In this document: positions 9,274 to 11,040 of the stretch, piece by piece
How positions within the stretch are numbered: position 1 is the stretch's first letter
Layout: each line of letters starts with the position of its first letter
DNA from: a virus
Strand: one strand, 5' to 3'
Length of the DNA stretch: 11,678 nucleotides
Virus record (IMG/VR): IMGVR_UViG_3300029258_002616
The notes under the pieces: generated by a model
Seen by the model: the letters and a program-made list of their open reading frames with translations, nothing else
What the model was told of the DNA's origin: nothing
Database searches by the model: none
Made by a program: the position numbers and the translations under genes

Positions 9274-11040
9274 ATTCATTTACTAATAACATTGGGACAT
9301 AATAGCTCTGCGATCGGAATGACAAATCAAGCTAAGATGATCGCCGGCTACGAAGAAGAAAGATTTTCAAGAATTAAATCTGACGCAAACTTTCCAATAC
9401 AATCAATTAAAAAAATATTTGAATTGCATCCGCCAAGAAAAGATATAAACAATTATCTTTATATTTCTCATTGGTATGATGATTTTCTTTTTTATGAAAA
9501 AGACAATATTAAAAAAGAAAGATTTGATAGAAAGTTTATTCAAAATTTAATTGAAGAATATGGATTCAAATTAAGAACAATCAATGAATTTTTTACTCAT
9601 CATGATGCACACGCTCACGCAGCGAAAGCTTTTTATGATTTTTATAATAAAAACAAAGATAATGGAATAGTAGGGATTATTGTCGCCGATGGTTTCGGAA
9701 ATTGGCAAGAAGTAATTTCAGTATATGAATATGATTCGCGCAATAATGACGTTACAAAAATTGCCCATTTTAACGAATATCAAAAATCATTAGGATTAAT
9801 GTATCAATATGCAACGGCGTTTTGTGGAATGAAAGAAAATCAAGATGAATATAAATTTTTAGGATATGAATCGCACATTAAAGAAGTTCTTTCACAAGAA
9901 GATATAGAAAAGCTTTTATATGAGCTTGAATTAGATTGCGATCAACAATATGCGAAATTGCTATCTCCTACAAAACTTAAATATAAATGGGGAAGATTAT
10001 TGGTTCCAGATTGCAGAGACGATAAATATATTAAGCTAGACGATTTGCAAAAAACACGAGATATGTGGTATAGATATTTAAATTTTCTTTGTGTTAAATA
10101 TGCGTGCACAGAAAATTTTGATAAAAAAGTATTAGTAGGTTTTGTTATTCAAACTATTATAGAAAACATAATTTGCAGAATAATAAAAGCAGCAGGATTT
10201 GATAAAGTTATTTTATCTGGCGGAATATTTTATAATGTAAAACTTAATAACGCAGTAATGAATAAAGTTAAAAAAATTGGAATACTTCCGCCAGCTGGAG
10301 ATCAAGGCGCCGCGATAGGAGTCTATTACAAAACAGAAGGAAAGGATGTTCATCCATTCGATTTTAATAATTTTCTAATAGGCAAAAGAGATTTAAATTG
10401 CGATCACTTAGATAGTGAAATATTTAAAATTGAAAACAATGTTTGGTACTTAAAAAATAGAGATGAACTAATTGAAAGAGTTGTAACAAAACTTAAGAAT
10501 AATGAAATTGTGAGTGTCGTAACTGGTGACATGGAATTTGGTCCAAGAGCTCTTTGTAATACAAGTACTTTTGCACTTCCTAACGAAGATAATGTTGCGT
10601 TAATAAATACATTAAATGGAAGAAGTACGGTAATGCCTATGGCCCCGATTATGACGATAGACAATTTAGAATATTTCTTTGAAAAAGAACAAATACAGAA
10701 AATAGTTGGTTCATATCACTATATGATTATTACACTAGATTATAAGAAAAAAATTATTAAAAAGGAACTAGATAAATATAGAGGTATAATGCATAAATAT
10801 CCGTTAGAAGATAAATACAGTGGAAGACCTCAAGTAGTTTTTAATGAACATTTTATGTATGAAGTATTAAAACAATTAGAACCAGAATATAGAGCTTTAA
10901 TTAATACATCATTTAATGTTCATGGAAGACCAATTGTTTATAGCGCAAAAGATGCAATCGATGATTACAAATATCAATTAAAACAAAAGAAAGGAAGACT
11001 TATTCCAACGTCTATTAATTTAATTATTGCAGATATTTAG
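9274..11040 (+). CDS. NodU/CmcH-family carbamoyltransferase (about 588 aa), probably initiating at ATT
   Basis: Family motifs recalled from memory. N-terminal LLITLGHNSSAI…EERFSRIK matches the family's ILGIS..HDSSAAL…EERFSR(K)KH. HHDAHAHAAKAF matches HH.AHAA.AF, the metal-binding motif. Also GDQGAAIG, MEFGPRALCNTS (compare EFGPRALGNRS) and SFNVHGRPIV (compare TSFN..GEPIV). AAGGAGG at 9260-9266 is 7 nt from in-frame ATT 9274. The frame is open from 9262. The ORF track's TTG at 9292 is 25 nt from the SD. Confidence 0.85.
   Translation: MHLLITLGHNSSAIGMTNQAKMIAGYEEERFSRIKSDANFPIQSIKKIFELHPPRKDINNYLYISHWYDDFLFYEKDNIKKERFDRKFIQNLIEEYGFKLRTINEFFTHHDAHAHAAKAFYDFYNKNKDNGIVGIIVADGFGNWQEVISVYEYDSRNNDVTKIAHFNEYQKSLGLMYQYATAFCGMKENQDEYKFLGYESHIKEVLSQEDIEKLLYELELDCDQQYAKLLSPTKLKYKWGRLLVPDCRDDKYIKLDDLQKTRDMWYRYLNFLCVKYACTENFDKKVLVGFVIQTIIENIICRIIKAAGFDKVILSGGIFYNVKLNNAVMNKVKKIGILPPAGDQGAAIGVYYKTEGKDVHPFDFNNFLIGKRDLNCDHLDSEIFKIENNVWYLKNRDELIERVVTKLKNNEIVSVVTGDMEFGPRALCNTSTFALPNEDNVALINTLNGRSTVMPMAPIMTIDNLEYFFEKEQIQKIVGSYHYMIITLDYKKKIIKKELDKYRGIMHKYPLEDKYSGRPQVVFNEHFMYEVLKQLEPEYRALINTSFNVHGRPIVYSAKDAIDDYKYQLKQKKGRLIPTSINLIIADI

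Follow-up and report, generated by a model that had tools for sequence, protein, structure and literature searches.

A viral DNA stretch of 11,678 nucleotides (the window) contains, at 9274-11040, a reading frame that resembles O-carbamoyltransferases and appears to start at a rare ATT codon. This raises two questions, namely whether the frame is a functional gene initiated at that ATT, and which acceptor its product would carbamoylate. Taken as a whole, an explanation in which this is a functional, AUU-started phage carbamoyltransferase gene, most likely with 5hmC as the acceptor, appears moderately probable.

Source of the locus

The carbamoyltransferase gene is likely phage-borne. All called genes lie on one strand, and the window contains eight tRNA genes. 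Homologues of its 931-aa MVP-like protein occur in the phage collection only in uncultured phages of 462-735 kb, and those of its RNaseH-like gene are found in phage genomes that in many cases are large (~170-250 kb). The three known contigs of this locus reach at most 13,289 nt, and the 13.3 kb contig carries no virion gene. The source genome is probably a large, tRNA-rich phage, of which the window is a fragment.

A class III O-carbamoyltransferase

Sequence and modelled fold identify the product of 9274-11040 as a class III (TobZ-type) two-domain O-carbamoyltransferase. The frame is open from 9274 to 11038, with no stop and no frameshift, and contains the following features:

9274..11040, plus strand: carbamoyltransferase coding sequence, 588 codons including the start, plus stop TAA 11038-11040
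9277..9291, plus strand: residues 2-6 (HLLIT), the first beta-strand of the Kae1-like/ASKHA domain in DSSP on the model
9295..9300, plus strand: Gly8-His9 of the GHNSS motif, both invariant in the alignment; His9 is the predicted general base
9307..10320, plus strand: Kae1-like N-terminal domain (PF02543)
10489..10968, plus strand: YrdC-like C-terminal domain, predicted to make the carbamoyl-adenylate (PF16861)

The first-pass annotation had recognised NodU/CmcH/TobZ family motifs in the sequence, and the following results agree with it. Carbam_trans_N (PF02543) matches residues 12-349 in Pfam (E 1.4e-12, 48.2 bits against a cut-off of 24), and Carbam_trans_C (PF16861) matches residues 406-565 (E 1.2e-25, 90.5 bits against a cut-off of 27). 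The protein matches PHROG 1601, 'Nol-like carbamoyltransferase', at 5e-60. It keeps 55 of 55 invariant columns in a family alignment of 56 sequences. The AlphaFold model of the 588-residue protein (pLDDT 91.6, pTM 0.92) aligns over its full length in Foldseek with GdmN, NovN, VtdB and TobZ (E 5e-29 to 1e-25, TM 0.66-0.73). The best identity to anything in the databases searched is 49%, and none of 50,697 phage records matched 8000-11678 in a megablast, which indicates that a close cultured relative is absent.

Invariant residues of the N-terminal domain comprise H109 and H113 (HHDAH, 9598-9612), D139 (9688-9690) and D343 (10300-10302), which we take to be the metal ligands from what is known of TobZ. 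Those of the C-terminal domain include E421, G423, P424, R425, N448, R450, R518, T545, S546, N548 and H550. The motif and the alignment ranges suggest that His9 is equivalent to His27 of GdmN, the general base of that enzyme, whose H27N variant is inactive (PMC9633730). The deposited structure 3vex is an H14N variant of TobZ. From family membership, the window protein is expected to carry out carbamoyl phosphate- and ATP-dependent transfer via carbamoyl-AMP.

The class III structures compared were TobZ (3ven), GdmN (7vx0), NovN (9s2t) and VtdB (7xb6). They share with the window protein the Kae1-like plus YrdC-like fold, the HHxxH/D/D residues, a general-base histidine after beta-strand 1 and, by homology, presumably the carbamoyl-AMP chemistry. 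They differ in being only 17-21% identical to it and in acting on antibiotics (aminoglycoside, ansamycin, aminocoumarin), and GdmN and NovN possess an extra C-terminal dimerisation domain that is missing from the window protein. The window protein also matches both Pfam domains of NodU, NolO and CmcH above gathering score, and PHROG 1601; those enzymes act on Nod-factor sugars or cephalosporin intermediates and sit in cellular operons, whereas the setting here is phage nucleotide metabolism.

Proposed initiation at ATT 9274

The coding sequence appears to start at ATT 9274, a reading that rests on sequence comparison and on two features:

9260..9267, plus strand: Shine-Dalgarno sequence AAAGGAGG, 6 nt before the ATT and 24 nt before TTG 9292
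9274..9276, plus strand: ATT, proposed initiation codon (would be decoded as fMet), placed by Shine-Dalgarno spacing and by alignment with the homologue Met

The sequence reads TAA (9259-9261), AGG AGG CCC GCC ATT (9274) CAT TTA CTA ATA (9286) ACA TTG (9292). The LLIT encoded from 9280 matches the family consensus, so 9280-9291 is coding and, as first proposed, the conserved N-terminus extends upstream of TTG 9292. Seven codons, from the first AGG to TTA, are available between the stop at 9259 and this LLIT, and ATT 9274 is the only near-cognate start among them. The AUU thus lies at a spacing appropriate to the Shine-Dalgarno sequence, and no canonical start preserves the conserved N-terminus. 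The motif AGGAGG occurs three times in the window, always on the plus strand and 5-7 nt ahead of a gene start (1777 for ATG 1790, 4138 for ATG 4149 and 9262 for ATT 9274); the remaining genes have GGAG-type sites, mostly 5-8 nt upstream of the start.

Homologues support the same position. Among the 120 best database homologues, 118 start upstream of the GHNSS motif, and the two exceptions are a miscalled self-hit and a protein shortened by a scaffold gap. Most begin M-x-L-L-x-T-L-G-H-N-S-S, the commonest N-terminus, so the homologue Met aligns with ATT 9274, in line with the earlier claim that this is the only well-placed initiation codon. In all 59 viral loci, the start precedes the Gly of GHNSS by 4 codons or more and is ATG or, in L004 and L023, TTG; the closest viral relatives start at -7 from this Gly, exactly as ATT 9274 does. 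The first-pass annotation had named homologues consistently starting at the equivalent of 9292 or later as an observation that would speak against the ATT; none of about 180 homologues begins at the 9292 equivalent. Protein P0052 was considered as a second case of a non-canonical start and rejected, as its scaffold has a run of N and a normal ATG with a Shine-Dalgarno sequence is present.

A downstream start at TTG 9292, ATA 9286 or ATG 9319, giving a protein 4 to 15 residues shorter, is very unlikely. TTG 9292 is the first canonical start in frame, automatic gene callers choose ATG 9319, and a few database homologues are annotated from M-I-T-L-G-H, so short N-termini are perhaps tolerated. 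Against this, none of the three codons has a Shine-Dalgarno sequence 5-10 nt away, the only one lying 18 (9286), 24 (9292) and 51 nt (9319) upstream, and L3, L4, I5 and T6 all agree with the family consensus. Starting at 9292 would also remove beta-strand 1, which DSSP places at residues 2-6 of the model (pLDDT 94 for the first 10-residue block). Starting at 9319 would in addition remove the invariant Gly-His general base; the 573-aa protein of the gene callers lacks G8-H9, its catalytic N-terminus cut off because the gene apparently starts at a rare ATT.

An upstream in-frame or fused start is excluded by TAA 9259 and by the terminator that follows the upstream gene. Two putative expression signals precede the ribosome-binding site:

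9193..9229, plus strand: intrinsic-terminator-like hairpin and T-run, closing the upstream gene (8959-9204)
9214..9243, plus strand: sigma-70-type promoter-like sequence, TAGACA-18 nt-TATAAT, ~17 nt upstream of the ribosome-binding site

No other terminator-like site occurs in 8900-11678 besides this hairpin, which has a stem of 13 pairs, a 6-nt loop and a T-run. The promoter-like site matches 11 of 12 consensus positions and has the top score of the region; it is a consensus match only, in an AT-rich region where the number of such matches is not above chance. Folding of the leader and initiation region gives no sign of RNA structure or a riboswitch, being no better than that of shuffled sequences (z 0.93), and Rfam finds only tRNAs over the window.

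The ATT is identical in three assemblies from two pipelines, namely the window, an ENA contig (L001) and a JGI contig (L002). It could in principle be a sequencing or assembly error for a true ATG, since it is a single base off ATG exactly at the homologous Met position and the assemblies could share reads or stem from sister samples. This is highly improbable, given that all three carry the same base and the site lies outside any homopolymer. The ENA contig differs from the window by one base elsewhere, at 7994, which implies that the assemblies are not copies of one another; the three may come from related samples and need not be independent.

No other homologue has ATT, ATC or ATA at the start position (120 proteins, about 62 loci), and the rare start is not phylogenetically conserved but unique to this lineage. 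It may therefore be a recent, possibly deleterious start-codon mutation. In a stronger form of this idea, the ATG-to-ATT transversion has effectively silenced the gene, leaving a pseudogene of very recent origin or an allele of strongly reduced function. The uniqueness of ATT among about 180 homologues (which use ATG, occasionally TTG) is compatible with such a loss, as is the discrimination of IF3 against AUU starts, whose output in one reporter study was ~5% of that from AUG (PMC5499595). Furthermore, relatives are at most 49% identical, so the persistence of the ATT over time is not visible. Silencing nevertheless seems rather unlikely, because the 588-codon frame is intact with all 55 invariant family residues, the Shine-Dalgarno sequence is of the strongest class in the window at ideal spacing, the ATT allele is common to two haplotypes, and AUU can support substantial expression, as in Escherichia coli infC, which initiates at AUU (PMC5499595).

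The window gene resembles infC in that a Shine-Dalgarno sequence serves the AUU start, and a lower, IF3-sensitive output would be expected here. The infC AUU belongs to a proven autoregulatory loop and shows phylogenetic conservation, whereas the ATT of the window is confined to one lineage. From the spacing and the homologue alignment, we infer that the AUU of the window is actually used.

Relationship to the 5hmC carbamoyltransferase

In 2021, an enzyme from a sewage phage contig was shown to convert 5hmC to 5-carbamoyloxymethylcytosine (Yang et al., eLife, PMC8670742). It accepts 5hmC as dNTP, ssDNA and RNA (PMC8670742). MetaGPA identified the positions of TobZ W408, G421 and R423 as those most differentially conserved between modified-DNA and unmodified-DNA contigs (PMC8670742). 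In the window protein, these positions fall in one segment:

10516..10563, plus strand: subfamily signature V415 ... EFGPRAL-C428-N-T430, placed by alignments

By sequence, the window enzyme is assigned to the same viral subfamily as this 5hmC enzyme, its only characterised member. BLASTP aligns the two over their full length at 29% (28.6%) identity with E 2e-77, compared with 3e-22 for NovN, ~2e-17 for GdmN and ~1e-6 for TobZ among PDB O-carbamoyltransferases (range to 6e-6), so that the window protein is nearer to the 5hmC enzyme than to carbamoyltransferases acting on antibiotics or Nod factors. Across the 52 viral homologues compared, identity to the characterised enzyme is 26-37%. The three signature positions read V/C/T in the window protein and I/C/T in the characterised enzyme, as opposed to W ... 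EFGPRAL-G-x-R in TobZ and NovN and W/G/R across TobZ, GdmN, NovN and VtdB, with TobZ numbering mapped through the NovN alignment and the 13/15-residue spacing. The window protein thus has non-TobZ residues at all three. An aliphatic-or-Thr/C/T signature is found in 46 of 49 viral homologues, and C..T in 101 of 119 database homologues.

The two enzymes also share the two-domain architecture, a similar length and the motifs LL.TLGHN[AS]SAI, SLGLMYQYAT, EFGPRALCNT, NGR.TVMP.AP and NTSFNVHG.PI, together with a phage context and nucleotide-metabolism genes in relatives. They differ in that the gene of the 5hmC enzyme lies on a contig with a thymidylate-synthase homologue and none is visible on the window contig, and in that the window gene has an ATT start and is followed by kinase-like and UDG-family genes. 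The earlier suggestion of a nucleotide or nucleic-acid substrate gains support, such chemistry having been demonstrated for a homologue (PMC8670742). At only 29% identity, transfer of the substrate from the characterised enzyme is not safe.

Occurrence in phages and gene neighbourhood

The first-pass annotation regarded a carbamoyltransferase as unusual phage cargo, which overstates the case. The family has its own PHROG and is found at 59 IMG/VR loci on as many contigs and in 14 cultured-phage records, with carriers among Bacteroides, Acinetobacter and Xanthomonas phages.

Of 58 viral loci, 49 have a gene of the thymidylate-synthase family no more than ~3.3 kb from the carbamoyltransferase homologue. 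The relevant motif is recognisable in 41 ORFs of this family, and 38 of them have Asp at the position of E. coli N177, the dCMP-specific state of thymidylate-synthase homologues (PMC8670742). Such homologues are also found in L063, L067 and Xp15; Xp15 and the L067 contig have the same module around the carbamoyltransferase. Genes for dUTPase and dCMP deaminase are frequent neighbours in related loci. The 13.3 kb contig extends only 2.2 kb past the gene and has no thymidylate-synthase or dCMP-hydroxymethylase homologue; a thymidylate-synthase homologue is likewise missing from the 11-17 kb contigs of L064 and L065, close relatives at ~48% identity. Permissive Pfam scans of unannotated proteins detected no hidden homologue beside the genes of the closest relatives, and a 29-mer exact-match scan of JGI metagenome contigs found no extension past the end of L001.

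Two further frames lie downstream of the gene:

11183..11488, plus strand: 101-codon ORF between the carbamoyltransferase and the kinase-like gene, of uncertain module membership
11514..11678, plus strand: start of a P-loop dNMP-kinase-like gene that runs off the window (209 aa in L001)

The product of the gene at 11514 matches Pfam AAA_28 (1.1e-6) and PHROGs 2107 and 761, 'thymidylate kinase'. Of 58 viral loci, 34 have a homologue of this gene within 10 kb of the carbamoyltransferase, directly next to it in ~30; L063 and L067 have further homologues. The gene is a probable partner in the same nucleotide-modification module. The first-pass annotation had correctly identified both this P-loop gene and the metallophosphoesterase at 8225-8962, and had speculatively linked both to the carbamoyltransferase. 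Conserved synteny supports the kinase-like half of that proposal; for the phosphoesterase, no homologue exists in any of the 58 related viral loci. The metallophosphoesterase, an 81-aa ORF, the 101-aa ORF and the MVP-like protein were each rejected as module members, with 0 homologues in 58 loci. The 101-codon ORF, called in L002 and not in L001, has no Pfam or PHROG match either; L064 and L067 have short ORFs at the same position without detectable similarity.

In several relatives, the P-loop kinase-like and UDG-superfamily proteins are fused into one polypeptide. Neither gene is listed among the top co-occurring domains of the characterised enzyme (PMC8670742). The present comparison indicates that the dNMP-kinase-like gene and, in this clade, also the UDG-family gene travel with the transferase. 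The UDG-family protein of this contig has GMNPG where family-4 enzymes have GEAPG.

Acceptor and proposed role

The acceptor is, we infer, most likely 5-hydroxymethyl-dC. The window protein and the 5hmC enzyme have specificity-associated signature residues in common, the subfamily is strongly linked to Asp-type thymidylate-synthase homologues, and the immediate neighbours of the gene are nucleotide or DNA enzymes (dNMP-kinase-like, UDG-family). A genuine carbamoyltransferase with another acceptor is possible but less likely; candidates are a different hydroxylated base such as 5hmU, a small molecule, and sugars or glycans attached to DNA or to the cell surface. The low identity to the characterised enzyme leaves room for it, as does the lack of a dCMP-hydroxymethylase homologue on this contig and those of two close relatives. 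In addition, the broader family carbamoylates sugars and polyketides, and L064 has glycosyltransferase and radical-SAM/SPASM genes near its homologue. 5hmU is made less attractive by the characterised enzyme, which does not accept 5hmdUTP (PMC8670742).

In the favoured explanation, the gene would form its own expression unit, comprising terminator, promoter-like site and strong Shine-Dalgarno sequence. Initiation at AUU 9274 by initiator tRNA would give a product that begins fMet-His-Leu-Leu-Ile-Thr-Leu-Gly-His. The AUU would reflect a lineage-specific ATG-to-ATT change, with translation probably reduced and IF3-sensitive, for which the 8-nt Shine-Dalgarno sequence at optimal spacing may partially compensate. 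The YrdC-like C-terminal domain would convert carbamoyl phosphate and ATP to carbamoyl-AMP, and the Kae1-like N-terminal domain, with its metal site and general base His9, would transfer the carbamoyl group to the acceptor hydroxyl. The acceptor, most likely 5-hydroxymethyl-dC present in single-stranded phage DNA or among the dNTPs, would thereby become 5-carbamoyloxymethylcytosine, which may shield the phage genome against host nucleases. The downstream P-loop dNMP-kinase-like and UDG-family genes would probably belong to the same nucleotide-modification module.

This scheme parallels T4-type dC-hypermodification, which employs dCMP hydroxymethylase gp42, dNMP kinase gp1, dCTPase, dCMP deaminase and glucosyltransferases. 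Relatives of the window locus have a T4-like set consisting of an Asp-type thymidylate-synthase homologue, a dNMP-kinase-like gene, dUTPase/DCD and dCMP deaminase, of which the window contig shows only the kinase-like part, together with the UDG part. Unlike in T4, a carbamoyltransferase takes the place of the glucosyltransferase, the final group would be carbamoyl and not glucose, and the clade of the window has a UDG-family protein that accompanies the kinase or is fused to it.

A more elaborate arrangement, which is distinctly unlikely, would be a fixed three-part module of transferase, P-loop protein and UDG-like protein. Here, the UDG-like protein would serve not as a repair glycosylase but in base flipping or recognition, presenting 5hmC for carbamoylation or keeping out unmodified C/U, and the AUU would set a low, IF3-sensitive level of transferase relative to its partners. 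If true, this would extend the 5cmC pathway in a way not described before.

Significance

The chemistry and family of this carbamoyltransferase are already known, and the gene does not overturn current understanding. The public gene call (573 aa, ATG 9319) lacks the first beta-strand and the catalytic Gly-His, and the correct product would have 588 residues from ATT 9274; cloning the annotated 573-aa ORF would probably yield a dead enzyme. The locus also offers a clean, comparatively supported example of what appears to be an AUU start in a phage gene. To the 5hmC carbamoyltransferases, a recently discovered family of enzymes for DNA hypermodification, it contributes a divergent member.

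Enzyme identity and subfamily

The frame of the carbamoyltransferase gene (9274-11040, + strand), read directly from the sequence, is open from 9274 to the TAA at 11038-11040. Its 588-amino-acid translation matches Pfam Carbam_trans_N and Carbam_trans_C, both above gathering scores, and PHROG 1601 'Nol-like carbamoyltransferase' (5e-60), so the coordinates and family proposed in the first-pass annotation are right. It keeps all 55 residues that are invariant across the family alignment, including H109, H113, D139, D343, and residues of the YrdC-like domain. An AlphaFold2 model built from a 56-sequence alignment (pLDDT 91.6, pTM 0.92) matches GdmN, NovN, VtdB, and TobZ over its full length in Foldseek (E 5e-29 to 1e-25, TM 0.66-0.73), while Kae1/TsaD is matched by its N-terminal half only. 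Conserved residues and predicted fold together indicate an intact class III O-carbamoyltransferase.

The antibiotic carbamoyltransferases are distant from the window protein in sequence (E 3e-22 to 6e-6), whereas the one viral member that has been characterised, with the sequence given by Yang et al. 2021 (PMC8670742), aligns with it end to end at 29% identity (E 2e-77). That enzyme requires carbamoyl phosphate and ATP, converts 5hmC in ssDNA, 5hmdCTP, and RNA to 5-carbamoyloxymethylcytosine, and accepts neither 5mdCTP nor 5hmdUTP (PMC8670742); the carbamoylation chemistry on which the first-pass annotation speculated was thus shown for a homologue in 2021. Conservation differs most between modified-DNA contigs and unmodified-DNA ones at the positions of TobZ W408, G421, and R423 (Yang et al., PMC8670742). 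Mapped through a NovN alignment and residue spacing, they correspond to V415/C428/T430 in the window protein and I/C/T in the characterised enzyme. Of 49 viral homologues, 46 carry an aliphatic-or-Thr/C/T signature, as against W/G/R in NovN and, presumably, in TobZ. With the window enzyme, an already known phage DNA-hypermodification family gains a new and divergent member. The transferase subfamily is abundant in IMG/VR and occurs in 14 records of cultured or assembled phages, so that its earlier description as unusual phage cargo is overstated.

Start codon

Three starts have been assigned to this gene: ATT 9274 in the first-pass annotation, TTG 9292 in a mechanical ORF list, and ATG 9319 in public gene calls, the last giving a 573-amino-acid protein (P0001). 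By codons, the region reads TAA (9259-9261), AGG AGG CCC GCC, ATT (9274), CAT TTA CTA, ATA (9286), ACA, TTG (9292).

In 118 of the 120 top database homologues the protein starts ahead of the GHNSS motif, usually with M-x-L-L-x-T-L-G-H-N-S-S. The two exceptions are a miscalled self-hit and the homologue P0052, for which a truly short N-terminus was rejected because a scaffold gap causes its truncation. Of 59 IMG/VR loci, all that are informative start with ATG (TTG in loci L004 and L023) at least four codons before the GHNSS glycine, and none starts at the equivalent of TTG 9292. At the DNA level, the closest relatives start at -7 from this glycine, the same place as ATT 9274. Since L3, L4, I5, and T6 of the window protein agree with the family consensus, 9280-9291 is coding; together with the in-frame stop at 9259, this confines the start to seven codons, among which only ATT is near-cognate to AUG.

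Shine-Dalgarno placement points the same way. Nearly all window genes carry a GGAG-type motif, mostly 5-8 nt before ATG or GTG. The motif AAAGGAGG at 9260-9267 lies 6 nt ahead of ATT 9274 and 24 nt ahead of TTG 9292, and none was found for 9286, 9292, or 9319. The hexamer AGGAGG occurs three times in the window, a chance-level count whose information lies in placement: all three are on the + strand, each 5-7 nt before a gene start, the third start being ATT 9274. In the AlphaFold2 model, residues 2-6 form the first β-strand (pLDDT 94 for the first 10-residue block). Judged by this model, a start at 9292 would cost that strand, and one at 9319 would additionally cost the invariant Gly8-His9. 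In GdmN the equivalent of His9, His27, acts as general base, and the H27N mutant lacks activity (PMC9633730); the PDB holds a TobZ H14N variant. Homologue position, the narrow interval, the Shine-Dalgarno motif, and structure converge on ATT 9274, which is probably the true start and the best-supported gene model.

The same ATT is present in the window, the ENA contig L001, and the JGI contig L002, so that an error of assembly is unlikely even though the independence of the samples is unproven. Window and L001 differ only at 7994 (T vs C) over 11,677 bases, pointing to a single phage represented by two near-identical haplotypes or assemblies. The initiation region contains no unusual structure. 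Two elements lie upstream of the start:

9193-9229: terminator-like hairpin, the only one of the region
9214-9243: promoter-like site TAGACA-18-TATAAT, the region's best match

With these elements in front of it, the gene appears to form an expression unit by itself.

Initiation at AUU is an established rarity. In E. coli infC it serves IF3 autoregulation with expression still good, and in a phage-derived reporter it gave ~5% of AUG output (PMC5499595). No homologue compared has ATT at the start position, so the codon is best read, on sequence comparison, as a lineage-specific ATG-to-ATT change, which may be adaptive, neutral, or mildly crippling.

Probable phage origin

The called genes of the contig all lie on one strand, and no virion gene was found on it. 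Three features bear on its origin:

180-3916, + strand: eight tRNA genes among small ORFs (Rfam 7, ARAGORN 8)
2292-2744, + strand: RNaseH_like (PF04308) / PHROG 11311 protein
4149-6944, + strand: 931-amino-acid protein carrying the shoulder domain of the major vault protein (Pfam 1.9e-23) and, weakly, a Vault_3 repeat

The tRNAs are Trp-CCA, Ser-UGA, Leu-UAA, Leu-CAA, Leu-UAG, Phe-GAA, Arg-ACG, and Ser-GCU; such arrays are typical of large phages. For the 931-amino-acid protein, whose gene has the window's strongest Shine-Dalgarno motif (AAAGGAGGT), the only homologues from the phage collection are those of the uncultured huge phages LR756500, LR756501, and LR756503 (462-735 kb; 38% identity, full length). 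Homologues of the RNaseH-like protein occur in 80 phage records, most of them from Vibrio phages; among those listed, the best lie in genomes of ~170-250 kb (Vibrio, Pseudomonas). The indirect evidence (strand bias, tRNAs, phage homologues of these two proteins, and distribution of the transferase subfamily) is consistent, and the contig is most simply read as part of a large phage genome.

Gene neighbourhood

All ORFs within 10 kb of a carbamoyltransferase homologue were clustered across 58 viral loci. The commonest neighbour is a thymidylate-synthase-family protein (49/58 loci; Pfam 1.7e-23), almost always on the transferase's strand and within ~3.3 kb. Where the RSxD...G...x motif is recognisable, the position of E. 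coli N177 is Asp in 38 of 41 ORFs and Asn in none; Asp here is the dCMP-specific state (PMC8670742). Many related phages (L017, L022, L024-L026, L029-L033, L035, L037, L041-L043, L050, L053, L055) have two paralogues downstream: a proximal one of ~250-300 amino acids, directly after the kinase-like gene and without the canonical RSxD...G...D motif, and a distal one of ~215-235 amino acids that retains it with Asp.

The second commonest neighbour, a homologue of the gene that begins at window 11514, is a P-loop protein (Pfam AAA_28, dNK; PHROG 'thymidylate kinase'). Its gene lies within 10 kb in 34/58 loci and directly adjoins the transferase in ~30; next in frequency come dUTPase and dCMP deaminase, in 21 and 18 loci. 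No locus of the 58 has a counterpart of the metallophosphoesterase (8225-8962) or any other upstream window gene. Of the module proposed in the first-pass annotation, these counts therefore support the P-loop link and not the phosphoesterase link. In L018 (IMGVR_UViG_3300033120_001036; ~10001-10080), the transferase homologue has an in-frame stop within the conserved G-Y-E-E-E-R motif (VIG*EEERL), which could be a pseudogene, sequencing error, or stop-codon reassignment.

The same module is found in Xanthomonas phage Xp15 and in L067, the contig of the best named match, where the order is PolB-TS-dUTPase-CT-x-UDG-AAA_28-x-dCMP deaminase. L067 (GCA_021734125.1, JAIPJN010000016.1; 15 kb) is binned as 'Patescibacteria group bacterium' and also carries numerous small ORFs on one strand. 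Its appearance is that of a phage contig, either wrongly placed in the bin of a CPR bacterium or from a phage infecting one. In the window's clade, UDG-superfamily genes are associated with the transferase, neighbouring it in L003, L063, and L067:

L001 12123-12806: UDG-superfamily protein on the window's contig, downstream of the kinase-like gene
L004 11876-13150: UDG fused to a kinase-like (AAA_28/dNMP-kinase-like) domain (Pfam)
L007 11532-12866; L019 11736-13025 (also L020); L054 8471-9925: UDG/kinase-like fusions (overlapping BLAST hits)
L067 6789-8450: UDG-superfamily association with the transferase

The putative UDG on the window's contig has GMNPG in place of the family-4 GEAPG, which the L004 protein retains, and HPA as motif B. 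In the first kinase-like copy, the Walker A motif, SSSSHSGKT, is atypical. A second AAA_28/thymidylate-kinase-like paralogue lies beyond the window (L001 12919-13275), starting just before the contig end, so two P-loop kinase-like proteins flank the UDG-like gene.

Acceptor substrate

No thymidylate-synthase homologue occurs on the window's 13.3-kb contig, which stops 2.2 kb past the transferase and for which an exact-match scan of JGI metagenome contigs brought no further sequence. Even permissive thresholds revealed none in the 11-17 kb of L064 and L065, two of the closest relatives (~48% identity), which carry dCMP deaminase, dUTPase, dNK-type kinase, and radical-SAM genes. Radical-SAM/SPASM genes lie near the transferase (L064 2234-4446, L065 2332-3237), accompanied in L064 by genes of the FAD/NAD-binding oxidoreductase and glycosyltransferase types. 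Different or additional modification chemistry in this clade is hinted at by this gene content and the missing synthase. Because the synthase homologue is absent from the window's contig and from those of both relatives, 5hmC is favoured only modestly as the acceptor of the window enzyme, and another hydroxyl is a less probable candidate. The main practical value of the analysis lies in the corrected gene model of the carbamoyltransferase and in the observed conserved transferase/kinase-like (and UDG-like) module.
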